Assembly: GCA_028865615.1 (NCBI GenBank)
Contig: JAGWJT010000001.1
Location: 1,601-65,600 of the forward strand
Length of the DNA stretch: 64,000 nucleotides
Reading direction: 5' to 3'
Source: Patescibacteria group bacterium
GTDB lineage: Bacteria > Patescibacteriota > Minisyncoccia > Phycocordibacterales > PALSA-1337
In this document: positions 3,423 through 60,368 of the stretch, piece after piece
Layout: every line of letters starts with the position of its first letter
How positions within the stretch are numbered: position 1 is the stretch's first letter
Made by a program: the position numbers and the translations under genes
The notes under the pieces: generated by a model
Told to the model about the DNA's origin: nothing
The model's database searches: none
The model's input: only the letters and a program-made list of their open reading frames with translations

Positions 3423-3425
3423 CGC

Positions 3426-6933: not shown

Positions 6934-6972
6934 CGACTGTTTAACGGCTCTTTGATATCACAAGCTTGCTCT

Positions 6973-7428
6973 CTAGGGCAAGCTCTTTTTGTCTGATCGT
7001 ATTACCAATCTTACGATTCGGATTATCCATCTTACGATCACAAATGCCATAAACACAATAAGACCTAGTGCCAATAAACCAGACAGAGTAGAGCCCACAC
7101 TATTACTGGAAAAACCAAAACCTAGACCGACCATTAGATCTACAATAAATAGATATAGTATACCTATTATCATTAACAGATTTCCTATCCAAAAGGATTC
7201 TTTCTTACGATCACTTATAAAAGCAGAAATAATCCCAATGACAATAAGTACTACTTTTATTGGTAATGAATACCCAGCTGATATATAAAACGGCAAGATC
7301 ACCGGGAATATCCAGTAGGAAAATATAATCATCAGAACATAAAAACACATAGCAATCAAAGCATACGGTTTTTTCATAGCATTTTTAAGGTTACAATCTA
7401 ATATCATTTGTATCTTCATATAACTCAC
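6973..7428 (-). CDS. hypothetical polytopic membrane protein
   Basis: 151 aa with ~4 predicted TM helices, in an AT-rich stretch (approx 6950-8700). Confidence 0.5.
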   Translation of the reverse strand: MSYMKIQMILDCNLKNAMKKPYALIAMCFYVLMIIFSYWIFPVILPFYISAGYSLPIKVVLIVIGIISAFISDRKKESFWIGNLLMIIGILYLFIVDLMVGLGFGFSSNSVGSTLSGLLALGLIVFMAFVIVRWIIRIVRLVIRSDKKSLP

Positions 7429-7584
7429 AGTGTTAAGTATACATTATTAACAGAATATTTCGTACAATACATGTGCATATCGTTGGTTCTTTGCAAGTTT
7501 ACACAGAGCCCATCGAAAGATGAGCTCTTTTTAATACCATTCTATGCAAATCCCAAATCATGCATTAATATCCAAAACGGGTAA

Positions 7585-7767
7585 CTACTCAATTTGCAAA
7601 AATATACCACATATAAGTAAGACAATGACTAATACCAGTAAAATGATTGTCGAGGAGAAGAACAATTCTGATATATGGACAATTGGCGAATTTATCGAAG
7701 TATAAGCAAACAAGATCGCAAGAAGATAGAAAACAGATGAAAATATGGTGTTCTTATATTTTTTCAT
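7585..7767 (-). CDS. small membrane peptide; truncated paralog of the N-terminus of the 7839..8507 protein
   Basis: 60 aa starting MKKYKNTIFSSVFYLLAILFAYTS, vs MKKYKRLLLSTILLILALSTAYF in the neighbour; the upstream DNA (catggtt(a/t)a-ttaa-taactaatacta) is also duplicated. Confidence 0.35.
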   Translation of the reverse strand: MKKYKNTIFSSVFYLLAILFAYTSINSPIVHISELFFSSTIILLVLVIVLLICGIFLQIE

Positions 7768-7838
7768 GGTTATTTATTAAGTAACTAATACTAATTCGAT
7801 CGATAATGGATATCTGTGTAAAGTTGTTATGAGCTTTT

Positions 7839-8507
7839 TTATATGAATTTAATAGTCTGGACAATTTGATCCATCTGGCTGACTATAGAGCGATCATAAT
7901 CTGATGCTGTAACATTATTCGATAGTTGATAATCAATTGTATATGCCATTCCATTATTTATTAGCCAGTTACTTACAGGAGTAAACCTTGACGTATCATT
8001 AAACCCGGAATGATCAGATGACGAAAGTACTGGCCTTAAGAAGGTGAAATTGAAGTATGGAGCATCTGAACCCTCCCCGTTGACCAACGGATTGATATCG
8101 CGCCATGCTTTATGATTATCAATGTTCAAGCTTACAACCACATAAGGGGATAGCCTGGTGTTTAAATCATATGTTTGCTGTCCCGCAGCAGCCCCGCAAT
8201 GCTGAAGACTACAGATCTGGACCGTTATGACATAACCATTCTTACTCAATACCAGATTGTTGACGTTAGTCGAAGTTAATTCTTTTATTGACCAACCGGC
8301 AGGGTATTTGAGACTTATACCATATTGACTGTCACTGAAAGTCTGCCAACCGGTAATATTGGATGCCTGTGTTGTGCTCGGTGTTGGGTTAGATGACACT
8401 CCTGTAGTCTGGTTATTAAATTTATTTAGAGTAAACAAGAAATACGCAGTGCTTAGCGCTAAAATAAGTAATATGGTTGACAACAAGAGACGCTTATATT
8501 TTTTCAT
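7839..8507 (-). CDS. hypothetical secreted protein (N-terminal signal-anchor)
   Basis: 222 aa; MKKYKRLLLSTILLILALSTAYF then a Thr/Ser-rich mature part; no recognisable domain. Confidence 0.55.
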   Translation of the reverse strand: MKKYKRLLLSTILLILALSTAYFLFTLNKFNNQTTGVSSNPTPSTTQASNITGWQTFSDSQYGISLKYPAGWSIKELTSTNVNNLVLSKNGYVITVQICSLQHCGAAAGQQTYDLNTRLSPYVVVSLNIDNHKAWRDINPLVNGEGSDAPYFNFTFLRPVLSSSDHSGFNDTSRFTPVSNWLINNGMAYTIDYQLSNNVTASDYDRSIVSQMDQIVQTIKFI

Positions 8508-8641
8508 GGTTTAATTAACTAATACTACGATGAATAGTGTAGCATCTGACTGGCAAGACAAAAAGAGATCCTCTCCTGGAGAATATTTGAATCGTAATCA
8601 ATGTATATTGTGCGACATTGCATATCAGGCATTTATTCTTG

Positions 8642-8664
8642 AATATATCTTACAAGATATATTG
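8642..8664. promoter_or_regulatory. perfect 10-bp inverted repeat AATATATCTT-aca-AAGATATATT upstream of the 7839..8507 gene (candidate operator)
   Basis: Read directly from the sequence; sits in the promoter region between 8507 and 8752. Confidence 0.3.
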
Positions 8665-8712
8665 GATTAAACAGACAGCACTTACCCTCTCCCCCGCCTC
8701 AGACACCAAAAG

Positions 8713-8747
8713 GCCGCCCTGAAAAATGGGCGGCCTTTTGTAATATG
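8713..8747. terminator. bidirectional intrinsic terminator (aaaaggccgccc-tgaaaaat-gggcggcctttt)
   Basis: GC-rich stem flanked by A-run and T-run, immediately after the stop of the 8752..9222 minus-strand gene. Confidence 0.6.
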
Positions 8748-8751
8748 ACTA

Positions 8752-9222
8752 TCACTTCCTTGCCAAGCTATCACCCGAAGACCAGCACTTTTCCGATGAA
8801 GACCAAGGATCGGTGCCATACTTCTGGTAGAGATACTTGCCGAAAGCCACGTTGCCCTGGAGCGTATACAGGTCGTCCCCGAGCCTCTTTGCCTCATCGG
8901 CATGATAATACTCGTTGATCTGCATAACTCCCACGTCCCCGTGATTGACCTTGCCCCTGACGACTGCACCGTCCTTGTCGAACTGACGGAAGGTCGACTC
9001 GCAGAAAGCTACGTCGATCAATATAGGCTCATCGGCATAAGCGCCGCGTACATAGGCTTCCACCTCGTTGGCGCTTTCGGTATCGCTCACAGCTTGGCCG
9101 GATGTCGTCGCCTGGCCGTTGTTTGTGGCCGGCGCGACGGCGTTCATGGCGGCGGCATTGGCTTGTCCCGCTCCGTAGAGCGAAGACAAGAGGAATACCG
9201 CGCCGGTAGCTGCTTCTATCAT
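8752..9222 (-). CDS. secreted lysozyme-like / lytic transglycosylase (SLT) domain protein
   Basis: 156 aa; signal peptide; CESTFRQ (catalytic Glu-Ser) and GDVGVMQIN match the SLT E-S ... G-L-M-Q motifs. Confidence 0.55.
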   Translation of the reverse strand: MIEAATGAVFLLSSLYGAGQANAAAMNAVAPATNNGQATTSGQAVSDTESANEVEAYVRGAYADEPILIDVAFCESTFRQFDKDGAVVRGKVNHGDVGVMQINEYYHADEAKRLGDDLYTLQGNVAFGKYLYQKYGTDPWSSSEKCWSSGDSLARK

Positions 9223-9547
9223 GTTTTTTGAAATAACGGATAAACTTCATTTCGACTTCGACTCGAATGTCGTATCCGCAAGCGGCCACGCATCCTCGTT
9301 CGTCGAAATAAAAAAACGACCGTGCAATCATGAGATTACCTGTCGCCTTTTGTAAAACAAGTATAGCAAATCTATGTTTATAAGTCAATACCCTTCATGG
9401 TATAAAATGGCTCAACAAGGCCATATTTTGTGCATAAAAAACCCTTATTTTGAGCCATTTTTGGGAGGTTGCACAAAAATACGCCTTATGTTAAGGTTAT
9501 TTGGCATTCGATTTTGCATTTTAATTTTTTAGTTTTAACCTAATCAC

Positions 9548-9820
9548 ATGGCCCATCGCAAAGCAGAAGGTTCGACAAAAAACGGCCGAGATTCCAATCC
9601 AAAATACCTGGGCGTGAAGATAAATCACGGTCAGAAGGTCATGATAGGCCAGATCATACTCCGCCAGCGCGGCACGGATACCATGCCGGGATCAAATGTC
9701 GGCATAGGCAAGGATCATACTATTTTCGCCCTGAAAGAAGGCACGGTCTCTTTTGGCACCAAGCGCAAGACAAGCTTCAACAACGATATCGTCAGGAAGA
9801 AGATCGTGAACGTCGTTTAG
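9548..9820 (+). CDS. rpmA: 50S ribosomal protein L27
   Basis: 90 aa; [24 protein letters not shown]...RQRGT...GKDHTIFAL is the classic L27 pattern. Confidence 0.9.
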
Positions 9821-10260
9821 GCGGCTTCTATGGCCAGCTTGAACTTGACGGTTTTGTCCCCCACGTTCACCTCTATCATATGTTCACCGGTCTCTTTGAT
9901 CGGATGATCTAGTTTGATTGCCGATGTCTCTATCTGTAGACGCGTCTGTTTCAATAATTCGGCGGCCAATTCTTCCTTGTGCAAGCCGGAAAATAGATGA
10001 CCTTTGTCGTTGGCTTTGGCGGACATAGTGATGGTTTTTCCTTGTAGCTCGTTCAGGCTTTTCAAAGCCAGGTCATCCTGGACTTTGCGCTCGGCCGCGG
10101 CCTTGGCTTTGGCGGCCTCGAGCTTTTTCAGGGCCTGCGGCGTAGCCGCTACGGCATCGCCGCGCGGGATGAGCAGATTCAGGGCATGACCGCTTGAGAC
10201 GTCCTTGACGTCGAACTTGCGTCCCAACTTCGCCATGTCTTTCAACAGTATGATTTTCAT
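9817..10260 (-). CDS. rplI: 50S ribosomal protein L9
   Basis: 147 aa; [34 protein letters not shown] matches the L9 N-domain. Confidence 0.9.
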
Positions 10261-10267
10261 GTTATTT

Positions 10268-10320
10268 GTATTATTCGTAGATTCGTATTGCCTCTATTTG
10301 TAGCATTCGCATCATATTCA
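10268..10320. repeat. second copy of the murG-upstream motif (attcgtagattcgta ... tgtagcattcgca)
   Basis: ~50-bp stretch sharing two blocks with 121-163 (attcgtagattcgta 15/15; tagcattcgca 11/11). Confidence 0.4.
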
Positions 10321-11526
10321 CTTCATCCCATCCAGCAACTGCACGGCCTTGTCCATCTGAGGGTCCTTGCCGGCCGTCTGATCAGCCGTGGTCATGGTGA
10401 CGGGATAATCCGGATCAAGGCCGTCGTGCTGGAGATTGTGGCCGTCCGGAGTGAGCCAGCGGGCTACGGTGACCTTGAGCGAGGTGTCGTCTGTGATGGG
10501 TACGAGTTCCTGGACCACGCCCTTGCCGAACGTCTTGTCGCCGACTAGCTTGGCCACGCCGTGCTCTTCCAGGGCTCCGGACAGGATCTCTGCGGCCGAG
10601 GCAGTGCCTCCGTTGACCAATATCACCATGTCCAGATTGTTATTGAATATGTCGTATCCCCTGCTGCGATATATCTGCGGCGAGCCATTCTTGCCGAAAT
10701 CCTCGGTAACTACCACCGAGCCGGCCGGCAAGAACCAGGAAGCCATGTCCACCGCCGCTTCCAGATAGCCTCCGGGGTTGCCGCGCAAGTCCAATACGAG
10801 CTTGTGATCGCCGGATTGGACGAATTGGCGCAAAGCGTTCCTAAAAAGGTCCGGGGACTGGGCCGTGAAGCTATATAGAGTGATGACAAATATGCCGCCG
10901 GGCTTGGATGATGTGTCTATGGTCGGTATGTTGATGATATCCCTCACGATGGTGCGGTCTACAGGCTTGGAAGCTCCCGGTTGCAGGAATGTGATCTTGA
11001 CCGGGGTGCCCTTTGGGCCTCGAATGAGCTGGACGGCTTCGTCTACGCTCATGTTCTCCGTAGAAGTGCCGTTTATGGACAATATGGCGTCGCCGGTCTT
11101 GACGCCGGCTCTGGCGGCCGGAGAGTCTTTGATGGGAGCGATGACGACCAGCTGATTGCTTTTGATGCCTATCTCCATGCCTACTCCCTCGAAATCGCCT
11201 TGGATGTCTTCCTCGAACATCTTTGACTGGGCCGGCGGGAAGAACACGGTATAAGGATCGTTGTAGGCGGAAGCAAGGCCTTCTATGGAACCCCATATCC
11301 TATCCTGGACGCTCGTGGAAGCCGCATCTACGTCCTTCTGGTCCAGAATATTCCAAGCTTTCCAGAAAGGAGAGAATTGGTCGGTCGATACGGCGGATGC
11401 ATCGGTCGGCTGTTGGCCGGACGGGCCGGAATGGATGCCGCCTGCATAGAAGCCGACGATGAAAGCTATGACTACGGCCGGCAAGCCGATGAGCAGGTAA
11501 ACTAGCTTTTTGTCCGAAGGATTCAT
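10318..11526 (-). CDS. ctpA: carboxyl-terminal processing protease (S41 peptidase with PDZ domain)
   Basis: 402 aa; PDZ region (GVKTGDAILSINGTST) and S41 catalytic region (GGTASAAEILSGALEEHG...KTFGKG); N-terminal TM. Confidence 0.85.
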   Translation of the reverse strand: MNPSDKKLVYLLIGLPAVVIAFIVGFYAGGIHSGPSGQQPTDASAVSTDQFSPFWKAWNILDQKDVDAASTSVQDRIWGSIEGLASAYNDPYTVFFPPAQSKMFEEDIQGDFEGVGMEIGIKSNQLVVIAPIKDSPAARAGVKTGDAILSINGTSTENMSVDEAVQLIRGPKGTPVKITFLQPGASKPVDRTIVRDIINIPTIDTSSKPGGIFVITLYSFTAQSPDLFRNALRQFVQSGDHKLVLDLRGNPGGYLEAAVDMASWFLPAGSVVVTEDFGKNGSPQIYRSRGYDIFNNNLDMVILVNGGTASAAEILSGALEEHGVAKLVGDKTFGKGVVQELVPITDDTSLKVTVARWLTPDGHNLQHDGLDPDYPVTMTTADQTAGKDPQMDKAVQLLDGMK

Positions 11527-11595
11527 GTTGTCGGGATATTATTGCATATTCCGCGGTAGTTTTCAAAAGCCACGCTTTGTCATATAATTGGCTGC

Positions 11596-12519
11596 ATGAT
11601 AACGACACGTTCGGCAAAGGGCATATCCTGGATAGATCTGGAATCTCCGGTTGACGAAGAGATTGCCGGCCTTGTGCAGAGATATGGCATACATCCCCTA
11701 GTCGGAGAGGAGCTCAAGAGCTCTGCATCATCCGCAAAAGCGGAGCTCTACAAAGATTATCTCCTGGTGGTGATGACTATGCCTGTGCGCACCAAGATCG
11801 ACGGCACTCACGCTATCGAAGACCGCGAGATAGACTTTGTCATCGGCAAAGACTTCCTGATCACGTCGCATTTTGAGACGATAGATACGTTGGACAACTT
11901 TGCCAAGATATTCGAGGCCAACGCCATTTTGGACAAAGAAGCCAAGTTCGACCATGCCGGACATTTGTTCTATTACATAGTCATGAAGCTTTACGGTGCC
12001 ATGGTCGACGATCTCGAGAATATTCGCGACGACCTGTCGGTGGCCGAGACCAGGATATTCCGCGGAGATGAGAGGCGCATGGTAGAAGTGCTGTCGAAGC
12101 TATCGCGAGAGCTCATAGACTTCAGGCAGACGGCCAGGGTGCACAAAGACATATGGTCGGACATGCTCGAAGCAGAAGACAAATACCTTTTTGGCTCCGA
12201 CTTCAAGCCATATGTCAAAGCCATAAGCGACGAATTCGAGCGCATACACGACATCATAGCCAATTGCCGGGAGCTCGTAGCCGACTTGCGCGAGACCAAC
12301 GACTCCCTGCTCAATACGCATCAGAACGACATCATCAGGACCTTGACCGTCATCAACTTCATATTCATCCCTGCCACTTTCATCGCCGCCCTGTTCACCA
12401 TCCCGGCGTCGTACGTGCCGCTCATAGGCAGCGACATCGGCTGGACCATCATCCTCGCCGGCATGGTAGCCATAACCATAGGCATATGGTGGCTCATCAA
12501 GCGCAAGAATTGGATATGA
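11596..12519 (+). CDS. CorA/ZntB-like divalent cation transporter (two C-terminal TM helices; canonical GMN motif not evident)
   Basis: 307 aa; cytoplasmic alpha/beta domain followed by 2 TM helices at the C-terminus ending in basic residues; stop overlaps the cysS start (ATGA). Confidence 0.55.
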   Translation: MITTRSAKGISWIDLESPVDEEIAGLVQRYGIHPLVGEELKSSASSAKAELYKDYLLVVMTMPVRTKIDGTHAIEDREIDFVIGKDFLITSHFETIDTLDNFAKIFEANAILDKEAKFDHAGHLFYYIVMKLYGAMVDDLENIRDDLSVAETRIFRGDERRMVEVLSKLSRELIDFRQTARVHKDIWSDMLEAEDKYLFGSDFKPYVKAISDEFERIHDIIANCRELVADLRETNDSLLNTHQNDIIRTLTVINFIFIPATFIAALFTIPASYVPLIGSDIGWTIILAGMVAITIGIWWLIKRKNWI

Positions 12520-49478: not shown

Positions 49479-52400
49479 ATGGCTTCCCTATTTACCCATC
49501 TCCATACCCACTCCCACTACTCCCTGCTCAATGCCCTGCCCAGGATAGACGAGCTGGTGACAGAGGCCAAGAAGCTCGGCATGGATGCGCTGGCCTTGAC
49601 CGACAACGGCAATATGTACGGCACCATAGAGTTCTACAAGGCCTGCAAGAAAGCCGGCATCAAGCCCATCGTAGGCGTCGATTTCTATGTGGCCGCCAGG
49701 TCACGCAAGGACATGCAAGCAGGCATAGACAATCGCCGGTCACGCTTGGTATTGCTGGCCATGAATGAAACCGGTTACAGAAATCTCATACAACTCGTCA
49801 CCATATCGCACCTGGAAGGTTTCTATTACAAGCCGCGCATAGACCGAGAGCTCATCGAAAAATACAATGAGGGCCTCGTCTGCATCATGCCTTCGTTCAG
49901 CGGCGAGATCGCCCAGTCGCTCAAAGGCAGGAATCAGGACAAGGCAAAGGAAGTCGCCAATTTTTATAAAAGAGTGTTTCAGAAGGAGCTTCCGAACCTT
50001 CCGACTAGGCTCTTCATAGAAATAACCCGCCATCCCGAGATAGACGGGCACGAGCAGAACATGAAAACACTGGCCGACTTTGCTCGGGCGCAGGATATTC
50101 CTGTCATGGCCGCCCATGATGTCTACTACCTACACCCGGATGACCGCCAAGCCCGCGAGACTCTCGTGAGGGTCAATTCGCATATGGACGCATCCGACCG
50201 CATATCAGACGGCGACGAAGACGATTTCTCCTTCATATCGGGTGAGCGAGCCGAAGAACTATTCAGGGACATGCCCGAGGCGCTCGACAATACCGCCGCC
50301 ATAGCCGGAGCTTGCAACCTGGACCTCAAGCTAGGTACTTGGTTCTTCCCCGACTTCAAGGTGAAGAGCGGCCTATCAGCCGACGATGAACTTCACAGGC
50401 TGGTATTCGAAGGATTCGACAAACGCGGCGTAGAAAAAACCTCGGAGGCTGTATCGCGCGCCGAATACGAGCTCAAAGTCATACGCGACAAAGGCTACGC
50501 TCCGTACTTCCTCGTAGTGGCAGACCTGCTCCGATACGCCAAAGAGAACGGCATACTTTCCAACATCAGGGGTTCCGTGTCCGGTTCCATAGTGACTTAC
50601 TTGTCCGGCATCACTCAGATCAACCCGCTCACATATGAGATACCCTTCGAGCGCTTCCTGAACCCGGACCGCCCCTCGGCGCCGGATATAGACATGGACT
50701 ATGCCGACGATCGCAGAGACGAGATCATAGATTATGTCCGCCGAAAATATGGCCAGGACAAAGTGGCCCAGATAGGCACATTTGGCACCATGATGGCTCG
50801 TGGCTCCGTCCGTGATGTCACCCGCGCACTTGGCTTCGCCGTGGAGACGGGAGACCGCATAGCCAAGATGATACCAATGGGCTCGCAAGGCTTCCCCATG
50901 ACCATAGATAGGGCTCTGGCCGAGACGCCGGAACTCAAGCAGGCATACGATTCCGAGCCTGACACAAAGCGCATCATAGACATGGCCAAGAAGATAGAGG
51001 GCTGCGCCCGCCACATAGGCGTCCATGCCGCCGGCGTAGTCATAGCCCCGACCAAGCTCACCGACTATACCCCGCTTCAATATGATCCAAAAGGCGAAGG
51101 AAAAATCATTACTCAATACGATATGTATTCCATAGACGAGAATGGCGCTGGTCTTTTGAAATTCGACTTCCTGGGCCTGAAGAACCTGACCATCATAGCC
51201 GATGCTGTCAGCCGCATAGCAAAGATAGACGGTGTCTCGATAGACCTGGACAAATTGCCCATAGACGATAGAGAGACTTTTGAGATGCTGGCCAGAGGCG
51301 AGACGGCCGATTTGTTCCAACTGAACGGCGACGGCATGACCAGATTCTTGAAAGACCTGAAACCGTCATCGATACACGATATCAACGCCATGGTGGCCCT
51401 ATACCGCCCAGGTCCTATGCAATTCATCCCTGACTATATAGCCCGTAAGCACGACCATTCGCTCATCAAATATCTCGACCCCGCCATGGAAAAGATACTT
51501 GCCAAGACTTATGGCATCCTGGTCTATCAGGACGACTTGCTCATCATGGCGCACGACTTGGCCGGCTATTCATGGATAGAAGTGGACAAATTCCGCAAAG
51601 CCGTAGGCAAGAAGATACCCGCGGAGATGGCGGAGCAGAAAGAGAAATTCATCAAAGGCTGCATGAAGCACAGCAAATGGTCGGAGAAAAAAGCCAAGGA
51701 AGTTTGGAAGTGGATAGAGCCTTTCGCGGCATACGGCTTCAACAAGGCCCACTCCGTGTCGTACGGCCGCGTGGCCTACATAACCGCATACCTGAAAGCT
51801 CATTTTCCGGAAATATATCTGTCGGCGGTGCTGACTTCGGAACAAGGCGAAACGGACAAAGTGGCGGAGACCATAGCTGAATGCAAACGTATGGATATAC
51901 CCGTCCTGCCGCCGGACGTGAACGAGTCGTTCAGCAAATTCACGGTGGTCAAAAATCAATCGGGGTCGGAGACTCATGCTCCGCAGAACCAGGTGTCTCC
52001 TCGCCCGTCATCCAACCGAACAGAGACGGGCTCGGAGCACCCTACGTTCTCGCCGCCGCCAGTGGTCCAGACAACTCGTTCCTCCGCAGCGGCTCCGAAA
52101 GTTTCTGCTGAACATGAGTCTCCGACCCCTCCTTCCGCTCCGACCTATTCCGCTCCGGCTCATTCAAGCACATATCACACCATTCGCTTTGGGCTGGTCA
52201 CCATCAAGAATTTCGGCCAAGGCATATCGACGGCCATCATAGACGAGCGCAAGAAAGGCGGCCGATTCAAGTCCTTGGCCGACTTCCTGGAGCGCGTCCA
52301 TGACCGCAACCTCAACAAAAAATCCCTAGAGTCGCTCATCAAGGCCGGGGCCATGGACTGCTTCGGCCACGACCGCGGCGTCATGCTGGCCAATATCGAT

Positions 52401-52901
52401 CGATTGCTGGAATACAACAAAGAGAGTTCTTCGCGGCATGCCGACCAGGATTCCCTGTTCGGAGGCATGGCTGATCATTCATCGGTACCTTCCCTGCGCC
52501 TGGAAGAGACCGCCCCAGCCGAGATGCGCGACAAGCTCAATTGGGAAAAGGAGCTTTTGGGCCTATACATATCCGGTCACCCGCTCGACCGGTATCGCGA
52601 TATCATCCGGAAGAAAGACATAGACATCAAGAAGGCTCTGGAGACGATCAAGGAGGGCGGCTCGGCGGTCATCGCCGCCATCATAAGCGAAGTGCGCACA
52701 GTCCAGACCAAGAACAACGAGACTATGGCGTTCTTGTCTATCGCCGATTTCTCCGGCTCCGCCGACGCCGTAGTCTTCCCGCGCACTTATCGCGAGTACC
52801 GCGAGATCATAGTGCCGGACGCCTGCCTGGCCTTCAAAGCCATCGTCAACGAGCGCAACGGCGAAAAAGGGTTTGTTATAGAGAGGATGAAGAAACTATA
52901 A
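49479..52901 (+). CDS. dnaE: DNA polymerase III alpha subunit DnaE (PHP + polymerase core), with a ~54 aa low-complexity in-frame insertion
   Basis: 1140 aa; the PHP motif HLHTHSHYSLL and polymerase core are conserved; the insertion lies between FSKFTVVKNQ and IRFGLVTIKNFGQG. Confidence 0.9.
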   Translation: MASLFTHLHTHSHYSLLNALPRIDELVTEAKKLGMDALALTDNGNMYGTIEFYKACKKAGIKPIVGVDFYVAARSRKDMQAGIDNRRSRLVLLAMNETGYRNLIQLVTISHLEGFYYKPRIDRELIEKYNEGLVCIMPSFSGEIAQSLKGRNQDKAKEVANFYKRVFQKELPNLPTRLFIEITRHPEIDGHEQNMKTLADFARAQDIPVMAAHDVYYLHPDDRQARETLVRVNSHMDASDRISDGDEDDFSFISGERAEELFRDMPEALDNTAAIAGACNLDLKLGTWFFPDFKVKSGLSADDELHRLVFEGFDKRGVEKTSEAVSRAEYELKVIRDKGYAPYFLVVADLLRYAKENGILSNIRGSVSGSIVTYLSGITQINPLTYEIPFERFLNPDRPSAPDIDMDYADDRRDEIIDYVRRKYGQDKVAQIGTFGTMMARGSVRDVTRALGFAVETGDRIAKMIPMGSQGFPMTIDRALAETPELKQAYDSEPDTKRIIDMAKKIEGCARHIGVHAAGVVIAPTKLTDYTPLQYDPKGEGKIITQYDMYSIDENGAGLLKFDFLGLKNLTIIADAVSRIAKIDGVSIDLDKLPIDDRETFEMLARGETADLFQLNGDGMTRFLKDLKPSSIHDINAMVALYRPGPMQFIPDYIARKHDHSLIKYLDPAMEKILAKTYGILVYQDDLLIMAHDLAGYSWIEVDKFRKAVGKKIPAEMAEQKEKFIKGCMKHSKWSEKKAKEVWKWIEPFAAYGFNKAHSVSYGRVAYITAYLKAHFPEIYLSAVLTSEQGETDKVAETIAECKRMDIPVLPPDVNESFSKFTVVKNQSGSETHAPQNQVSPRPSSNRTETGSEHPTFSPPPVVQTTRSSAAAPKVSAEHESPTPPSAPTYSAPAHSSTYHTIRFGLVTIKNFGQGISTAIIDERKKGGRFKSLADFLERVHDRNLNKKSLESLIKAGAMDCFGHDRGVMLANIDRLLEYNKESSSRHADQDSLFGGMADHSSVPSLRLEETAPAEMRDKLNWEKELLGLYISGHPLDRYRDIIRKKDIDIKKALETIKEGGSAVIAAIISEVRTVQTKNNETMAFLSIADFSGSADAVVFPRTYREYREIIVPDACLAFKAIVNERNGEKGFVIERMKKL
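51965..52126. repeat. 162-bp in-frame insertion in dnaE bounded by ~17-bp inverted repeats (gtcggagactcatgctc / gaacatgagtctccgac); MITE-like
   Basis: 15/17 complementary; the length is a multiple of 3; translated as SGSETHAPQNQ...AEHESPTP (Pro/Ser-rich). Confidence 0.5.
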
Positions 52902-52903
52902 AT

Positions 52904-53284
52904 TCAAAGTGGTGTTTTATCCGTCCTATAATATTCTCTGAGTGAACTGAATTTATCGTCACGGACACCGAAAATTGCCACCTCATGCATGTCTATGCGC
53001 AAGTTACGGACTGTATCTGTGAAAATAGCATTCCATTCCGCGATGACAGTTTGGCCGTCTTCATCTAACCACAAATTCAACAGCTTGAATGATATGTCTT
53101 TCTGGGCACCGACAATTTTGCTTTGCCAATAAGCTTTTATGCCCTCATGATCCTTCTGTTCCCCTTCGCACGGATCGAAATAAGTGGCATCCGGTGTGAA
53201 TATAGTCAATATGAGATCTGCGTCTCGGTTGATCCAAGCTCTGCCATATGTGTCTATGAGAGCAACTGCTTCTTGTCTCGTCAT
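52904..53284 (-). CDS. SnoaL-like / NTF2-like domain protein
   Basis: 126 aa; pattern (AVALIDTYGRAWINRDADLILTIFTPDATYFDP) typical of the SnoaL_2/DUF4440-type fold. Confidence 0.45.
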   Translation of the reverse strand: MTRQEAVALIDTYGRAWINRDADLILTIFTPDATYFDPCEGEQKDHEGIKAYWQSKIVGAQKDISFKLLNLWLDEDGQTVIAEWNAIFTDTVRNLRIDMHEVAIFGVRDDKFSSLREYYRTDKTPL

Positions 53285-53295
53285 ACCAGATAATC

Positions 53296-54069
53296 CTACA
53301 TCTTCTCAGCCTCGATTGCCATGAACATCGGTATCTCTTTGCGGGCTTTGTCTTCGGCCTCCGACCGCGGACCTTTCTGACTCTTCCTGTGAGATATCCA
53401 CTCCTCCAGCCTCGTCACGGCAAAACCGGCTTTGGCAAGAGCCTTGAAATAGCCCTGCAAGGGCCTATGAAATGAGACTGTCATCTCCTTCGACTTCGCC
53501 GACTTGGCGCCTGGATTCATGTCTATCTCCGATCTGGAATCAGACATGTAGCCATCTATCCTTCTGTACTGAACCTTTCCCTCTTCATCCCAGCCCCACT
53601 CCGACTCCTTCGGTATGCGAAACGCGGGATGGTTAAGCACAAAGACGAATGAGCCGCCCGGCCTCAAGACGCGGGCGCATTCGGTCGCGACACCGGCGAT
53701 GTTCTCTATATTCTGCAATGCCAAGACGATGACAGCCGTATCGACGGATCCGTCAGGTATTGATGAAAGGCCGTCAGCCGGAGCAACACGATAATCTATA
53801 CCCGCCGACGGTTTGCTCTTTGCGGCTTCTATGAGGCTCTTTGATATATCGCATGAGACGACTCGCGCTCCGGCGGCCGCAAAGGTGCGCGAAAAATATC
53901 CCTGTCCGCAAGCGATATCCGCCACTGTCATGCCCGGCTTCGGCCCGACGATACGCATCAGATTCGGCAATATGACCTTAGCCTGGAATGAATCCTCCGA
54001 CCCTTCCAGGAGATCATCATACCATTCCGCCACATTTTCCCATGAAGTCTTGTCCGGCTTTTTATTCAT
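53296..54069 (-). CDS. class I SAM-dependent methyltransferase
   Basis: Start at MNKKPDK; motif I VADIACGQGYFS and post-I acidic residue (VVSCD). Confidence 0.75.
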   Translation of the reverse strand: MNKKPDKTSWENVAEWYDDLLEGSEDSFQAKVILPNLMRIVGPKPGMTVADIACGQGYFSRTFAAAGARVVSCDISKSLIEAAKSKPSAGIDYRVAPADGLSSIPDGSVDTAVIVLALQNIENIAGVATECARVLRPGGSFVFVLNHPAFRIPKESEWGWDEEGKVQYRRIDGYMSDSRSEIDMNPGAKSAKSKEMTVSFHRPLQGYFKALAKAGFAVTRLEEWISHRKSQKGPRSEAEDKARKEIPMFMAIEAEKM

Positions 54070-54111
54070 GGTCGTATTGTACAGGAAATATCTGATCCGC
54101 CACAATATCGC

Positions 54112-54621
54112 TCATTTGCGCGGATCAAAATCCTCCGTGAGCTTGATGGTCACCTTGCCCCTAAATTTGCCGCCTGGTCCCTTGGAATCAATACGCGCCA
54201 TGGCGTTATAAAGGTCGAATAATGCACTCGGCGACTTCTCCAGCTTGTACCGATTGAGCGAGTAGCCGCTGATGATATATTGCCTTAGCACGCCTGTAGC
54301 CCATATGCGGAATTGGGTGGCTTTCTTGGAGTTAACGCGATATCCCACTGCAATTATCACATCGAGGTTGTAGCAATTTACCTCCCTTTTTACCTTGCGG
54401 ACACCTTCGTTTTGAACTATCCGGAATTTCCGGATAGTTGATGCTTCATTCAATTCCTTGCTCTGAAAGATGTTCTGGACGTGCTCATTTACTGTACGCA
54501 CATCAACATCGAATAATTCGGCTATCTGCGCTTGCGTAGCCCAGATCGTATCCTTTTTTGTATCGGCCCTGAGCTCGATCTCTCCGCTTTCTCCTTGATA
54601 GATCACAATATTGTCTTTCAT
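54112..54621 (-). CDS. RhuM-family (virulence-protein RhuM) DNA-binding protein
   Basis: Starts MKDNIVIYQGESGEIELR; IWATQAQIAELFDVDVRTVNEHVQNIF and NLDVIIAVGYRVNSKKATQFRIWATGVLRQYIISGY match the RhuM family, which is usually found in mobile or integrated elements. Confidence 0.7.
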   Translation of the reverse strand: MKDNIVIYQGESGEIELRADTKKDTIWATQAQIAELFDVDVRTVNEHVQNIFQSKELNEASTIRKFRIVQNEGVRKVKREVNCYNLDVIIAVGYRVNSKKATQFRIWATGVLRQYIISGYSLNRYKLEKSPSALFDLYNAMARIDSKGPGGKFRGKVTIKLTEDFDPRK

Positions 54622-54840
54622 AATATTAAAATCGATTATGTTAATAATGAGCAAAAATGAACAAACACGTAACACGCGACGGCTATATGCGCCGCCAAAT
54701 TATTCAGTTGTAGTTCGTTTGTCTTGAATACCGAGAATCAGCTCACGTTCTGATGCAGATAATTGTATCAAAAATCTTCCGCCGCACAACTATTCATGCA
54801 AGAATTTTTGTGTCGTAAAAATAAACAATCTAGTAATCAT

Positions 54841-55509
54841 CTACTTCGCCTCGCCCGGCGCGTGCTCGGGGATGACGGGGCCGGGGGTTATGGTGCGCGG
54901 CAGGACCAGATGCGGCGCGGAGAAGAGCAGGACGGCGCTAACCAGCGAAGCTATGCCGGTCAAGATGAAGACGGCGTCGAAGCCCCAAAGGTTTGCGATC
55001 GCCCCGCCCACGAACGCGGCGATCCCGGACGCCACTCCTATGGTCGTAGAATCCAGCGACCAATCGAAAGCATAATGATCCTTGTCCAAATGTCGCGAGA
55101 ATATGGCCGACCAAGACGGCGTGTAGAGGCCATAAGCCAATGCCTGCAAGACGACCACCACGAACAGCCAGAACATGTTGTTCACCAATGGGAAGACTAG
55201 AGCCGTGAATCCGGCGGCGGTCAGACCGAGTATCAGGGCATTGAAATCGTCGCGCTCCCCCTCGTGTTTGTCCAGGAATATTGCCACGGGTATCTGCCAG
55301 ACGGCTTTGACCAGCCAGTACACGGCAAAGGCCGCGCCTACGGTGAAAGCGGTGGCTTCCGGCACTTTGGCTACTATGAAAAGGGCGAATATCGGGTTGA
55401 TGAGACCCCACCCGCCCCAGAAGAACAGGTCGGCCAATATCAGATACTTGACTATCCGGCCAACCCTGGCCTGCCTGAAGTCTAGCGGTATGTCTACTTT
55501 GAAGCGCAT
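54841..55509 (-). pseudogene. C-terminal half (6 TM) of an MFS-type transporter; N-terminal half missing
   Basis: 222 aa beginning in the central cytoplasmic loop; only ~30 nt separate it from the next upstream feature. Confidence 0.4.
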
Positions 55510-55542
55510 GGTGGATACATTCTATATCGGATCGACGCTTTA

Positions 55543-55878
55543 TCAAAACCGCATATCGTACCAATCCAGTCCGTATATTTCCTGGATCAGGATGCGTTCG
55601 CCCTTAGCCCAGGTACGATGGCCATTTAGACCCAAGAGAGCGATCGCGTCATTCACGCTCTTCTCGCTGGTACCCTCTATTTCCATGAATGCGGGCATTC
55701 CCGGATATTGGTCTATGTCGAAAGTCCAATCTCTGAACGCGAACGATGTCCTTATCTTTTCCTGATGCGCATATCTCTCCAATCCTATCTCCTCGAATAA
55801 GTCGGTCAGCTTATCCGACTCCGCTATATTGAAATTTATCTCTTTATGCTTCCTGGCCGTGCCTATGATGTCATGAAT
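55543..55878 (-). pseudogene. CYTH-domain (CyaB/ThTPase-like) C-terminal fragment lacking its N-terminal EXEXK half
   Basis: RTSFAFRDWTFDIDQYPGMPAFMEIEGTSEKSVNDAIALLGL matches the CYTH C-terminal blocks; an in-frame stop lies ~32 codons upstream of the TTG start; different frame from the adjacent NUDIX gene. Confidence 0.4.
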
Positions 55879-55889
55879 TTACGATCTAT

Positions 55890-56345
55890 TCAATGCGACT
55901 TCTTAACAAACTCATCTATTAATGGTAACTGGTATCCTACGATCTTGGATCTCGCTTCTTCGACGGAAAAGAATCCGGCGCGATCGACTTCGGGTATGTC
56001 TATTTTCTTTCCGGACTTTGGCGGCCATTCTATGGTTATCATGTTGCTGATTATCTTCGTCGGGTCGCAATCTCCCTCGAACATCCATGCGTGGACAGTC
56101 TTACCGGGTCTATCCGCAGATCCGATAGATACGAAATCCCCTTCGGCCGTCACGCCGGTTTCTTCCTTGAATTCCCTCTTCGCCACTTCCAACATCTCTT
56201 CACCTTCTTCCGTCTCGCCTTTTGGTATGCTCCATACCCCAATATCTTTATTTTTCCAAAAAGGACCTCCCGGATGCACCAACAAGATCTCTGGTTCACC
56301 ATTGACCATCCTATACATCAATAATCCCGCGCTTATCTTAGGCAT
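55890..56345 (-). CDS. NUDIX hydrolase
   Basis: 151 aa; Nudix box GETEEGEEMLEVAKREFKEETG. Confidence 0.8.
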   Translation of the reverse strand: MPKISAGLLMYRMVNGEPEILLVHPGGPFWKNKDIGVWSIPKGETEEGEEMLEVAKREFKEETGVTAEGDFVSIGSADRPGKTVHAWMFEGDCDPTKIISNMITIEWPPKSGKKIDIPEVDRAGFFSVEEARSKIVGYQLPLIDEFVKKSH

Positions 56346-56527
56346 GAAGAGAGTATATCATGCACACTTTAATCTACATAAAACAAGGAGAGTTTGGACT
56401 TCGCTTACATTAGCCAGACATCAATATAATTTTGTGTCAACTTGCAAAATCACCACAGCTTGATATCATTCACGCACAACTAGGACCCCGCGACAAATCC
56501 GCCGTATGGGGAAAGATCAGAAATGAT

Positions 56528-57106
56528 CTAACGGGCATCCTGACCATCCGCCGCAAGGCGGATGGTTGCTTTGCAACGACCAGAAATATGTCGATAGAGT
56601 TCACTCGCGGTTCCTGTTGATTTGTTGTGATAGGATCTGACCAACCAAGCCAATGCATCAGCAAGCCTGATCATTGGACAAGATCTGTCGTCAACGGTCT
56701 TTATAGATTTTACCGACAACCCTCTGCACCGCAAAGATCGCTTTATCTGGCTTTCATACCATTTAGGTTTTTTACCATCGATATATACTTTCTCTACATC
56801 AATCTCCGTTATAAGTGTGGCCATAGAATCATACAGCTCCTTTACCGGATCTATGGGATTATCAACTATCCTGTATTTGAACGAGAATTTCAGTTTAGAG
56901 ACCTTGATGATAAATTGTCTGCGAATAGACCAACCTCTGCGCGATCCGAAATCTGCCCAATGAAAATCGCTAATACCGAGACGTCTTTCAATGTCTTGAA
57001 TGCCGCGACTAACTGCCGTCTCATCTCTAACTCCTACATAGACCGCCACAAAACTCGATCTATCAGATCTTTTGTGTATACCTGATTCATCAATGAATAT
57101 ATGCAT
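56528..57106 (-). CDS. DUF3800-family protein
   Basis: 192 aa; N-terminal MHIFIDESG is characteristic of DUF3800. Confidence 0.55.
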   Translation of the reverse strand: MHIFIDESGIHKRSDRSSFVAVYVGVRDETAVSRGIQDIERRLGISDFHWADFGSRRGWSIRRQFIIKVSKLKFSFKYRIVDNPIDPVKELYDSMATLITEIDVEKVYIDGKKPKWYESQIKRSLRCRGLSVKSIKTVDDRSCPMIRLADALAWLVRSYHNKSTGTASELYRHISGRCKATIRLAADGQDAR

Positions 57107-57222
57107 GCAAAAAAGACTACCGGTGAACGATTAGAAACAGCCCTTTCGAGAAGCTGTGCAACGGATCGACATTGTACCATAGACCACTCCCAAATATGCA
57201 ATCAAAGTGTTATAGTACCGCT

Positions 57223-58995
57223 ATGAATCAACCAAATTCACTCGAACACAAACGCCACACCCTCGCCCATTTGCTCGCGGCGGCAGTGCTAGAAATCCAT
57301 CCCGACGCCAAACCGACCATAGGACCGGCCATAGACAACGGCTTCTATTATGACTTCGATTTCGGCGCCGAGAAATTGACGGACAAAGACTTGAAAGATC
57401 TGGAGAAGAGGATGCGTAAGCTGCTTCCCTCTTGGAAAGAGATGACTGGAAAAGAAGTTTCGAAAGATGATGCTATTCTACAATTCTCTACACCTAACGG
57501 AACTAACGAGTATAAAGCCGAGCTTATAAACGAAATCGTGACTAAAGGTGAAAAGATTACGCTTTACACATCCGGTAAATTCACCGATCTGTGTAGAGGT
57601 GGGCACTCCGAGAATCCTGCCAAGGATATAGCTCCCGATTCATTCAAGCTTTCACGGCTAGCGGGAGCGTATTGGCGCGGCGATGAGAAAAACAAGCAGC
57701 TCACCCGCATATACGGCCTGGCTTTTGATACAAAGAAGGAGCTCGATGAATACGAAACCATGATGAAGGAAGCCGAGAAGCGCGACCACAGGAAGCTCGG
57801 CAAGGAGATGGACATATTCGAATTCGACGACGATGTCGGCCCCGGCCTGCCTCTGTGGCTCCCGAACGGCGCTATCATAGCCGATGAGCTCGAAAAGCTG
57901 GCCAAGGAAACCGAATTCATAAGCGGTTACGACCGCGTCCGCACTCCGCATATAGCAAAGGACTCTATGTACTTGAAAAGCGGCCACCTGCCATACTACG
58001 AAGACTCGATGTTCCCTCCCATGGAATATGAAGGCGGCAAATACTACTTGAAGGCCATGAATTGCCCGCACCATCACAAAATATTCTCCGCCAGACCAAA
58101 GAGCTACCGCGACTTGCCGTTGCGCCTAGCCGAATATGGCACTTGCTATAGGCACGAGAAGTCCGGCGAGCTATTCGGTCTGATGCGCGTACGCATGCTC
58201 GAGATGAACGACGCCCATATATACTGCACGGAGGAGCAATTTGCCGATGAATTCAGGGCCGTGAACGACATGTATCTCAAATATTTCAAGATATTCGGCA
58301 TAGACAAGTACGTCATGCGCTTCTCTACACATGACCCCAAGAAGCTCGGCCAGAAGTATGTCGATGAGCCAGAGCTATGGAAGAAGACGGAGGACATGGT
58401 ACGCAAAGTTCTGGTCGATTCAAAAATCCCCTTCGTCGAGGTGCCGAACGAAGCGGCATTCTACGGCCCAAAGATAGACGTACAGGTATGGTCAGCCATA
58501 GGCCGTGAATTCACTCTGGCCACCAACCAAGTTGACTTCGCCGTACCCAAGAGGTTCAACCTCGTATACGCCGATAAAGACGGCAAGGAAAAGACTCCGC
58601 TTTGCATTCATCGCGCACCGCTAGGGACGCATGAGCGCTTCATAGGATTCTTGATCGAACACTATGGCGGCAACTTCCCCCTGTGGTTGGCGCCTATCCA
58701 GGTCAAAGTCATACCTGTCACGGACGCAGAGGCGCACGTGCGCAAGGCGCAAGAGACACACAAATCCCTGCGCGCCAAAATGATCCGTTCCGAGCTGGCC
58801 GACCCCTCTACCGGTTTCGGCAAGAATATCCGCGCCGCCAAGACCGCCCGCATCCCCTACTTCATCGTCATCGGCGACAAAGACATGGCCGCCGGCAAAG
58901 TCACACTAGAGAGCAGAGACAATGGGCAGGTGGGGCAAATGACGACGGACGAGGTGACGGCAAAATTACTCGGAGAGATGAGCGCCCGGATCTAG
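57223..58995 (+). CDS. thrS: threonyl-tRNA synthetase (lacks the N-terminal TGS domain)
   Basis: Start at MNQPNSLEHKRHTLAHLLAAAV; class II catalytic core and C-terminal anticodon-binding domain. Confidence 0.9.
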   Translation: MNQPNSLEHKRHTLAHLLAAAVLEIHPDAKPTIGPAIDNGFYYDFDFGAEKLTDKDLKDLEKRMRKLLPSWKEMTGKEVSKDDAILQFSTPNGTNEYKAELINEIVTKGEKITLYTSGKFTDLCRGGHSENPAKDIAPDSFKLSRLAGAYWRGDEKNKQLTRIYGLAFDTKKELDEYETMMKEAEKRDHRKLGKEMDIFEFDDDVGPGLPLWLPNGAIIADELEKLAKETEFISGYDRVRTPHIAKDSMYLKSGHLPYYEDSMFPPMEYEGGKYYLKAMNCPHHHKIFSARPKSYRDLPLRLAEYGTCYRHEKSGELFGLMRVRMLEMNDAHIYCTEEQFADEFRAVNDMYLKYFKIFGIDKYVMRFSTHDPKKLGQKYVDEPELWKKTEDMVRKVLVDSKIPFVEVPNEAAFYGPKIDVQVWSAIGREFTLATNQVDFAVPKRFNLVYADKDGKEKTPLCIHRAPLGTHERFIGFLIEHYGGNFPLWLAPIQVKVIPVTDAEAHVRKAQETHKSLRAKMIRSELADPSTGFGKNIRAAKTARIPYFIVIGDKDMAAGKVTLESRDNGQVGQMTTDEVTAKLLGEMSARI

Positions 58996-59048
58996 GTATA
59001 TTCTACTTTTCATTTCACTTCCACGTACAGGAGTAAATATACAGTGGA

Positions 59049-59498
59049 TCACACAACTCCTGTCCACCCCAAATCCTTCGCTCTCTTAAATTCCGCAGCA
59101 ATTATTCTGGCTGATTCTTTGAAACCGTTGCCTGCATCCTCTTCGGTCACAATAACTCTGGCTTTGTATGAATCCTTATGCTCGTTCGCGGTCACATCTA
59201 CAGTTATAACAATACCGTTGAATTCAAAGAAGCCGTCCACTCCATGGAATCGATCAAGGGCGCTACCTACAGCCGTATACATTTCTAATTGATCGGGTTC
59301 GATGCCCATAGCTTCGGCAACTGCATCGTGGAATGAGCCCGCTTCTCCAGTTGGATGATGCGGATCATAAGGCTGATTTTCCTTGACTTCTTCTATAGAC
59401 TGATTGAACTTCAAATATCCACGGGCTTTGATCCTGCATTCGCCCAATACTTCAGTCTCCAATATCTTCCCAGTGTATCCTGACGGTGCTTCGTACAT
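59049..59498 (-). CDS. unknown-family protein, paralog B (shares ~50% identity with 59808..60368)
   Basis: Shared blocks EVLGECRI(K/R)ARGY, GEAG(S/H)FH, YTA(V/I)GSALDRFHG(V/I)DGFF, VTVD.T.N.HKD, ARVIVT(E/A)EDA. Confidence 0.6.
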   Translation of the reverse strand: MYEAPSGYTGKILETEVLGECRIKARGYLKFNQSIEEVKENQPYDPHHPTGEAGSFHDAVAEAMGIEPDQLEMYTAVGSALDRFHGVDGFFEFNGIVITVDVTANEHKDSYKARVIVTEEDAGNGFKESARIIAAEFKRAKDLGWTGVV

Positions 59499-59573
59499 AT
59501 CACAAGTATATCATTACCGACACATATCAGACAAAAGTTAAGGCGCCGGGGACAAAATCCCTGGCGCCTTGTT

Positions 59574-59807: not shown

Positions 59808-60368
59808 TCAGATCACCCCTTTCCAACCGTGGATGCGCGCATGATCGAACCAGCCGGCGATCTCGTGGGCCGCTTGCCCATACTCGCCAAATTGGCTGAA
59901 TGCGTCTTCGGCAGTCACGATCACTCGCGCCCGAGAAACGTCCTTGTGCGGATTCATTGTGGCGTCAACCGTCACAATAGCCCCTTCGAAATAGAAGAAG
60001 CCGTCAATGCCGTGGAAGCGGTCCAGAGCGCTACCGATCGCGGTGTAGAGTTTGAGGCGCGAGGAGTTGAATCCTCGCACTTTCATACTGTCAGCCACCA
60101 CGCCGTGAAAATGCCCTGCTTCGCCCATCGGCTCATACGGACTACCTGGCTGATTGCGGAAGACCGCGCCCAAGGCTGAGCGGAATGATACGTAGCCCCG
60201 AGCGCGGATCCGGCATTCGCCAAGCACTTCGCGTTCGAAGATACGGCCAGTATAGCCGCGCAGTTCCGGATTACGATCACCGCGCCACATTGCGACGATA
60301 TCAAATGCATTCATATTTTTCATAACTGTATTTCCTCCGTAGTTGTAGTTGTTGATGTTTGCCGTCAA
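59808..60368 (-). CDS. unknown-family protein, paralog A (with a ~35 aa N-terminal extension)
   Basis: 186 aa; same conserved blocks as paralog B. Confidence 0.6.
   Translation of the reverse strand: MTANINNYNYGGNTVMKNMNAFDIVAMWRGDRNPELRGYTGRIFEREVLGECRIRARGYVSFRSALGAVFRNQPGSPYEPMGEAGHFHGVVADSMKVRGFNSSRLKLYTAIGSALDRFHGIDGFFYFEGAIVTVDATMNPHKDVSRARVIVTAEDAFSQFGEYGQAAHEIAGWFDHARIHGWKGVI

Follow-up and report, generated by a model that had tools for sequence, protein, structure and literature searches.

We analysed a cluster of five open reading frames (ORFs) at positions 54112–57106 of a 64,000-nt stretch of contig JAGWJT010000001.1 from a Patescibacteria group bacterium (the whole stretch is called the window here, and coordinates without a locus number are those of the window). 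All five ORFs lie on the minus strand and, in order of position, encode a RhuM-like protein, a membrane protein from the MFS (major facilitator superfamily), part of a CYTH protein, a NUDIX hydrolase and a DUF3800 protein; the ORF list, Pfam and NCBIfam agree with the coordinates and families given in a first-pass annotation of this DNA. The cluster belongs to a 4.27-kb interval (52902–57171) between dnaE and thrS. The first-pass annotation had read it as the remnant of a defence island or integrated element in which two adjacent truncated genes were deletion scars. We found that the CYTH gene is the only decayed gene of the five. The region is probably a patchwork of independent single-gene modules in a recombination-prone slot and not the wreck of one system, because its genes do not occur together elsewhere. 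Indeed, the component genes did not recur together in any of 71 thrS loci, 49 DUF3800 loci, or the CYTH, MFS or NUDIX loci, and no two of NUDIX, CYTH, DUF3800, RhuM and MFS were paired in the relative and homologue loci compared. Below, L-numbers denote these homologous or relative loci, and P-numbers homologous protein records.

The dnaE–thrS interval

The interval is anchored on the left by dnaE (DNA polymerase III alpha; 49479–52901, plus strand) and on the right by thrS (threonyl-tRNA synthetase; 57172–58995, plus strand). The synthetase is 73–81% identical to those of many Patescibacteria metagenome-assembled genomes (Paceibacteria or ‘Taylorbacteria’ type), and comparison of the window proteins with the 71 thrS loci by tblastn showed that the order dnaE, thrS, orf436 is conserved among relatives. 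The gap between dnaE and thrS, in contrast, is as short as 27 bp in L033 and as long as 6.1 kb in L048, and tblastn found none of the window's cargo in the gaps of these 71 loci. Instead, relatives carry SocA/Panacea antitoxins (L002, L021 and L059), a zeta toxin (L056), a PIN protein (L050), a type ISP restriction-modification enzyme (L059), a 97-aa NUDIX fragment (L025) or IS110-family transposases (L002, 1390–2877; L048, 6456–7757; L138, 3609–4520). As both the size and the cargo of the gap differ among relatives, the dnaE–thrS interval is a hypervariable slot between two essential genes.

We compared the window with its relatives at the DNA level. Along L081, blastn matched thrS, then exactly the MFS gene (55511–54844), and then dnaE from 52900. 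Homology with L081, L078 and L076 is confined to thrS, the MFS gene and dnaE, where it ends at 52892–52900; the blocks on either side of the MFS gene, 52902–54843 and 55512–57171, are specific to the window. GC content is 0.40–0.47 over DUF3800/NUDIX/CYTH and over RhuM, 0.55–0.57 in the MFS gene and 0.50–0.58 in the flanks, and it shifts abruptly at the borders of the MFS gene. The spacer (54622–54840) that separates the MFS stop from the RhuM start, at the end of the MFS gene where homology with relatives ceases, has a GC content of 0.43–0.47, and the relatively AT-rich character earlier ascribed to 54620–54860 was confirmed. These results support the view that the block is strain-specific accessory DNA of lower GC content than its flanks.

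We found no integrase or transposase gene in 52902–57171, and a search for flanking or att-like repeats at the block borders gave only chance-level matches of 14–17 nt. The nearest tRNA genes are at 48705 and 61973, so the block adjoins none. The picture of a defence-island or integrated-element remnant is thus borne out as far as the accessory low-GC DNA and the similarity of the RhuM-like protein to the PADLOC candidates PDC-S05/S23 are concerned, and lacks support in that no recurring system, integrase, repeats or adjacent tRNA were found. The slot resembles genomic and defence-island hotspots in its conserved flanking core genes, its content that varies between relatives, its richness in toxin-antitoxin, restriction-modification and insertion-sequence genes, its lower-GC cargo and the gene fragments at its junctions. 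It differs from them in being very small (4.3 kb), in lacking an integrase, tRNA and att site, and in that much of the cargo is metabolic or house-cleaning (NUDIX, S-adenosylmethionine (SAM)-dependent methyltransferase, SnoaL, transporter) rather than defensive.

The slot of L078 also holds a 108-aa Cas1 fragment (5536–5862), which, together with the IS110-family transposases, is a candidate agent of slot turnover. The slots of L002 (4373–4855), L078 (7451–7984) and L135 (2758–3264) share a protein whose N-terminus is disordered and Pro/Ser-rich and whose C-terminal domain is a winged helix; it has no Pfam match and is not present in the window.

The half-size MFS gene and the CYTH remnant

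The MFS gene (54841–55509, minus strand) had been taken for the C-terminal six helices of a transporter that had lost its N-terminal half. The six helices are there, and the rest of this description does not hold. The 222-aa product matches the Pfam MFS_1 profile with 76.7 bits (gathering score 33.4) over residues 25–199, and Pfam aligns it to profile positions 3–175 of 347, that is, to the N-terminal half; NCBIfam matches fall on either half of MFS. Its homologues number 258. Of the 120 listed, nearly all have a length of 217–230 aa (range 199–258), with 89–100% query coverage and 49–100% identity, and wherever the source name gives a lineage this is Patescibacteria (Wolfe-, Jorgensen- and Paceibacteria), except for P0113, which is labelled Chloroflexi. 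We therefore rejected a truncated pseudogene: the close homologues are half-size, not about 400 aa, and the ORF covers them fully.

The position of the gene points the same way, as homologues lie between thrS and dnaE, on the opposite strand, in L075–77 (73% identity), L078–80 (79%) and L081–83 (86%). In L138 the MFS gene adjoins dnaE and is preceded by an IS110 transposase and a PD-(D/E)XK protein. In all, the gene was found in this slot in at least four further lineages. No second MFS copy was found in the window, and an exact-protein look-up returned no record. Other six-TM families within the MFS superfamily are listed in TCDB (9.B.111 and 9.B.143; review, PMC8154325), and our literature search on half-size MFS_1 proteins found no description of a 222-aa family. 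Judging from homologue lengths, profile match and synteny, the MFS gene is an intact member of a conserved six-helix family, apparently undescribed.

An AlphaFold2 model built with 58 homologues (pLDDT 86.6, pTM 0.80) has six transmembrane (TM) helices. In Foldseek it superposes on one six-helix bundle of VMAT1/2, AmpG, PepT, YajR and NorA, with a TM-score of about 0.7 on the query and 0.27–0.44 on the targets, about half of each target being covered. Charged residues invariant in the family are D27, D80, H140, D142 and D153, and a motif-A-like loop, LDKHEGERDD, follows the second helix. The protein thus has the above-threshold profile match, the motif-A-like loop and the predicted one-bundle fold of MFS transporters. 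The latter, however, have twelve TM helices in two bundles on one chain, whereas here the chain of about 222 aa has six helices in one bundle, a state kept across more than 250 homologues. Such a single-bundle protein would have to oligomerise, presumably as a dimer of two six-helix bundles; this need would be analogous to that of semiSWEETs relative to SWEETs.

The CYTH gene, in contrast, is truly truncated. Its annotated ORF (55543–55782) starts with a TTG, preceded by GAGGAG, and encodes 79 aa; upstream of the TTG the frame remains open for another 32 codons, until a TAA at 55879–55881. This stop, the TTG start and the absence of the N-terminal EXEXK region had all been described correctly: the frame aligns to residues 72–180 of a 180-aa protein, which places the pseudogene remnant, delimited with TIGR00318 and tblastn, at 55543–55878 (minus strand). 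The extended frame matches positions 74–138 of 174 of the NCBIfam cyaB model TIGR00318 (E 1.3e-6), with a score of 28.4 bits that is below the cutoff of 57.95, and the ORF has no Pfam match. Among the 120 listed of 504 homologues, 114 are 175–186 aa long, the great majority 180 aa; the listed proteins are 68–80% identical to the extended 111-codon frame and align to 97–100% of it. The shorter ones are mostly on contigs of 1–3 kb, and none besides the window's own protein has a 79-aa form.

We searched the window by tblastn with full-length CYTH proteins (P0124, P0121 and P0129), and it was matched only over residues 72–180. The N-terminal 71 residues, which include the EXEXK motif (FEIETK in P0124), are matched in none of the frames of the 64-kb window, nor was a second CYTH copy found there. 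No more than about 17 nt separate the start of the homology from the NUDIX stop codon. Although the CYTH frame does differ from that of NUDIX, as had been pointed out, a single frameshift can neither restore nor fuse the gene, because no frame of the window contains the missing 71 codons; no NUDIX–CYTH pairing was seen elsewhere, and there is no evidence for a fusion of the two. The deletion scars of the first-pass annotation are therefore reduced to one, that in CYTH.

The remnant shows no sign of further decay. Of the positions with at least 95% conservation among the 114 full-length homologues, all 50 are kept, there are no stops, and conservation runs 30 codons upstream of the TTG, into untranslated sequence. 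What the remnant retains of the class IV adenylate cyclase (CyaB)-like triphosphate tunnel enzymes (PF01928, TIGR00318) is a stretch of 109 C-terminal residues, 70–80% identical to the 180-aa Paceibacteria CYTH proteins; the 71 N-terminal residues with the EXEXK motif are missing. The EXEXK residues of the family bind metal and triphosphate, and half a CYTH barrel lacks them. From its sequence, the gene is a non-functional remnant, not an enzyme.

The closest intact CYTH protein among the listed homologues, P0122 (80% identity), is encoded in the same slot in L135–137, in the order thrS, Panacea antitoxin pair, 157-aa protein, CYTH (180 aa), CBU_0592-like 85-aa protein, winged-helix protein, dnaE. 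Relatives thus supply the intact arrangement that the first-pass annotation had anticipated as far as CYTH is concerned, while a ‘full-length’ MFS protein there is one of 222 aa. Two candidate neighbours were tried and rejected: the 177-aa gene upstream of MFS in L078 is not CYTH but the winged-helix protein with the disordered N-terminus, and in L135 the 157-aa gene lying upstream of the intact CYTH copy has no similarity to NUDIX. Other intact CYTH copies stand in unrelated contexts (L072–74 and L084). The copy in L084 lies within a long array, all on one strand, of small hydrolase and house-cleaning genes (3572–12331; NUDIX, His_Phos_1, metallo-beta-lactamase, HD_3/YfbR-like, AAA_33, DUF1428, DUF1801 and DUF1653), beside an MmeI-type restriction enzyme.

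DUF3800, its small RNA and the remaining cargo

The DUF3800 gene (56528–57106, minus strand) encodes an intact 192-aa protein that matches PF12686 with 40.9 bits against a cutoff of 21. It keeps the motifs IFIDESG, FHWA, IDGKKPKWY and RLAD, and D6 and E7 of IFIDESG are invariant in 29 homologues. RLAD stands in place of the QxxD motif; its A and D are invariant, and the Q to R change is found also in most of 12 displayed sequences. Loss of this Q has been reported as well for retron-linked DUF3800 proteins (Mestre et al.).

An Rfam search of 52500–59500 gave a single match, which the first-pass annotation had overlooked: a DUF3800-II small RNA (RF02961) at 56476–56545 on the plus strand. The covariance-model match scores 54.4 bits (gathering 43.2, E 2.4e-9) and extends over the full model, positions 1–69 of 69. 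The RNA runs convergently with the DUF3800 gene, to which it is antisense, the two sharing the final 18 nt of the ORF. Upstream on the same strand we read a promoter-like site (TTGCAA, 16 nt, TG-TATCAT; 56442–56469), and folding revealed a terminator-like hairpin with a weak U tract at 56543–56574 (plus strand), antisense to the 3′ end of the ORF; the hairpin itself, 56543–56566, has a 10-bp stem and a GCAA loop. The predicted folding energy of 56476–56580 is −41.7 kcal/mol (z −4.26).

We then examined the pair in DUF3800 homologues from 49 metagenomic loci (35–61% identity). The Rfam model found the RNA in all 20 homologue loci tested, and a model built from these matches found it in 44 of the 49; the five loci without it end at a contig edge just past the gene. 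In all 44 loci with downstream sequence, the RNA was on the opposite strand, with its 3′ end between −18 and +85 nt from the stop, the exact 18-nt overlap being seen in 7 of 42 other loci. By eye, most of the 42 have a TTGACA/TATAAT-type promoter-like site ending about 6–9 nt before the RNA 5′ end, and in most loci a hairpin and U run directly follow the 3′ end. The structure is supported by covariation: 95.6% of cells are paired, compared with 27–57% in slid controls, and 11 of 14 pairs are changed on both sides. The window RNA takes the same shape.

The surroundings of the module are varied and mostly housekeeping. Since the 80 proteins flanking 21 DUF3800 modules, with 97 Pfam families among them, include no recurrent partner, the DUF3800 gene and its RNA are a self-contained unit. 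A search of phage and plasmid collections with DUF3800 gave no match, and a profile search of the PDB no significant one.

The window carries a new example of a known but unexplained protein–RNA pair. As in the RF02961 motif, a full-length, above-gathering match with a three-stem covarying structure adjoins a PF12686 gene, and a hairpin with a U-rich tail follows, as reported for several DUF3800 motifs (PMC5737381). Nothing essential differs; the window example belongs to the subclass with the 18-nt ORF overlap and has a weak terminator U tract. Eleven unrelated RNA motifs accompany DUF3800 genes, for which no functional hypothesis was offered (Weinberg et al. 2017, PMC5737381), and we found nothing specific in the literature on the function of DUF3800 RNAs. 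An RNase H fold has been predicted for DUF3800, which has also been connected with type VII retrons and with loci of Cas12a2 and type VI-F (PMC7736814, PMC10910872, PMC12669027). By analogy with the DUF3800 effectors of type VII retrons, the predicted nuclease and the small RNA may form a ribonucleoprotein module; the role we favour is that the RNA would restrain or direct the nuclease, as in toxin-antitoxin or abortive-infection modules.

Two loci of homologues deserve mention. On the 8.5-kb contig of L091, two DUF3800-II RNAs and a DUF3800-V RNA lie within 2.5 kb (748–970, 3178–3246), and modules with different RNA types can thus cluster. The closest homologue of the window protein, in L126 (6734–7170; the same 305-kb contig as L045), is 61% identical over residues 1–74 and 46% over residues 142–191, and lacks residues ~75–141 through an internal deletion. 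The DUF3800-II RNA is kept (49.7 bits) and the locus differs; this relative carries a copy of the module that is in decay.

Between DUF3800 and the CYTH remnant lies an intact, stand-alone NUDIX hydrolase gene (55890–56345, minus strand), which matches Pfam NUDIX PF00293 with 45.8 bits against 21.1 (E 7.8e-12). Its translation contains the Nudix box (GX5EX7REUXEEXGU) as GETEEGEEMLEVAKREFKEETGV. The best non-self matches are 60–66% identical, 138–244 aa long (most about 150–165) and from mixed phyla; their neighbours differ, ranging from arrays of small NTP-house-cleaning genes (L140) to a YafQ toxin (L142).

On the other side of the MFS gene, the RhuM-like ORF spans 54112–54675 (minus strand), with a probable ATG at 54621 that gives a protein of 169 aa (54112–54621). 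It scores 92.4 bits with Pfam Virulence_RhuM (PF13310; threshold 33.7), covering only profile positions 1–72 of 252, and matches PADLOC PDC-S05/S23 with E values down to 1e-57; these models are of 312–346 aa and are matched only over their first 134–147 residues. This coverage suggested a 3′-truncated gene, which we rejected, because short homologues with the same tail align end to end. An exhaustive search of representatives gave P0365 (171 aa) and P0372 (177 aa), which, together with the N-terminally incomplete P0366 (142 aa), have in common with the window protein the C-terminal tail G-K-[FIL]-[RK]-G-K-x-T-...-T-x-x-[LF]-x-P. The short form is represented by three other 50%-identity clusters, and full-length forms (L034, P0368 and P0392) diverge past about residue 140. 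By these alignments the RhuM-like gene is a conserved short form of about 170 aa, not a local scar. It is like the RhuM family and PDC-S05 in its strong match over the N-terminal DNA-binding-like region and the first 72 RhuM positions, and unlike them in lacking the remaining ~180 Pfam positions and having the conserved tail of the short form.

PADLOC, proposed earlier as a check on DUF3800 and its neighbours, recognised the RhuM-like protein, gave NUDIX a 16.8-bit match only and had no match for DUF3800, CYTH or MFS.

Two further genes complete the cargo on the dnaE side. A SnoaL-like small protein is encoded at 52904–53284 (minus strand; Pfam SnoaL_2, E 7.9e-14), and its gene is absent from the dnaE–thrS gap of all relatives. 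Next to it, at 53296–54069 (minus strand), is a gene for a class I SAM-dependent methyltransferase of the UbiE/Methyltransf_11 type (Pfam Methyltransf_11, E 2.9e-19), whose homologues in L020 and L045 (61–65% identity) lie elsewhere, between a 12-TM MFS gene and enolase.

Some features of the flanks were also recorded. Between thrS and orf436, two tandem paralogues (59049–59498 and 59808–60368, minus strand; 149 and 186 aa, 55% identical) without Pfam, NCBIfam or PADLOC matches mark a second variable spot, where homologues were found only in L009, L012 and L046. The window DnaE has a low-complexity Ser/Pro/Thr-rich insert of ~75 residues (51950–52180, residues ~827–900) that is missing in many relatives, whose tblastn matches split into 18–826 and 901–1140. 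In L030, dnaE is broken at residue 757 by ~1.3 kb (2302–3578), possibly an intein or other mobile insertion.

Origin of the interval

The arrangement suggests how the patchwork may have arisen. The half-size MFS gene would be a long-standing occupant of the slot. On its thrS side, the DUF3800 gene with its convergent RNA and the NUDIX gene abuts CYTH at codon 72; on its dnaE side are the short-form RhuM-like gene, the methyltransferase and the SnoaL-like gene. Insertion or illegitimate recombination of the low-GC DUF3800/NUDIX block may have deleted the 5′ part of CYTH, and, as the remnant shows no further decay, would have done so recently.

Several points weigh against this account. The window offers neither a mobility gene nor an att repeat, nor does a tRNA adjoin the block, so that any mechanism of gain is presumed, and the order of events may have been either an insertion into CYTH or the import of a patch comprising the CYTH remnant, MFS and RhuM. 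In about 30 other relatives the gap has no MFS gene, and what looks like an ancestral resident could instead be the product of repeated acquisition. An assembly chimera, or a 79-aa product still under selection, would also account for a CYTH remnant without decay. The roles proposed for the DUF3800–RNA pair and for MFS dimerisation are inference only, and a single-sequence AlphaFold2 model of DUF3800 was unusable (pLDDT 35.9), so that its RNase H fold rests on the literature.

Was the cluster instead once a working system, in which NUDIX, CYTH, DUF3800 and RhuM cooperated and from which deletions truncated MFS and CYTH? The PADLOC match of RhuM, the toxin-antitoxin and restriction-modification genes in the slot of relatives, the retron and CRISPR accessory roles reported for DUF3800 (PMC7736814, PMC10910872, PMC12669027), the truncation of CYTH and the low GC content of the DUF3800, NUDIX and RhuM stretches would all suit a decayed defence island. 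The intact MFS gene, however, already contradicts it; RhuM is a conserved short form, PADLOC does not recognise DUF3800, CYTH or MFS, the genes are not neighbours in the 49 DUF3800 loci or in the CYTH and NUDIX loci, and CYTH, a 180-aa protein of Paceibacteria, is highly conserved and occurs in contexts of a housekeeping type. We consider such an origin quite improbable.

The absence of decay in CYTH means either that the truncation is recent or that the join is an assembly artefact, namely a chimera of co-existing strains, the real genome having an intact CYTH gene or none. That the contig comes from a metagenome-assembled genome, that the slot differs between close strains, that all 50 conserved positions survive without a stop and that GC content changes abruptly at the MFS borders are consistent with such a chimera. 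We nevertheless regard it as unlikely, since an intact NUDIX stop codon precedes the junction by no more than about 17 nt, the sequence shows no repeat that might mislead an assembler, and the variable regions of relatives contain partly deleted genes as well (DUF3800 in L126; a NUDIX fragment of 97 aa in the gap of L025). Least likely of all is that the 79-aa ORF is kept by selection, for instance as a subunit with a regulatory or dominant-negative role; we give this very little credence, because conservation continues upstream of the start codon: the 30 conserved but untranslated codons fit a recent truncation better than a small functional protein. The TTG is preceded by GAGGAG, no disabling mutation is present, every family-conserved position is kept and NCBI annotates the ORF as a gene (P0219), but 114 of the 120 listed homologues are 175–186 aa long, none of the others except the window's own protein has this form, and a half barrel would be without the residues that bind metal and triphosphate.

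With a patchwork of independent modules in the dnaE–thrS slot as the preferred reading, two more far-reaching suggestions can be offered, both tentatively and with somewhat less than even confidence. The 222-aa proteins may be extant, widespread stand-alone six-helix MFS modules that work as homodimers, an MFS counterpart of semiSWEETs and a living model for the half-transporter stage that has been proposed in MFS evolution. Separately, DUF3800 and its RNA could be a minimal toxin-antitoxin or defence module.

The cluster as a whole reflects ordinary genome plasticity, a small variable slot filled with unrelated passengers, and its parts have wider implications. The half-size MFS family is abundant in Patescibacteria, where its members are routinely annotated plainly as ‘MFS transporter’ and can be mistaken for fragments, as in the first-pass annotation; ‘truncated’ calls in genomes of this candidate phyla radiation need a check of homologue lengths before they are read as decay. 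The DUF3800-II RNA and its protein are a strictly conserved two-part unit of promoter-like site, structured RNA, terminator and convergent gene (44 of 44 loci), and this fixed geometry gives a clean construct for testing the pair. If the half-size MFS protein dimerises, it would provide a simple symmetric system for the rocker-switch mechanism and its evolution.

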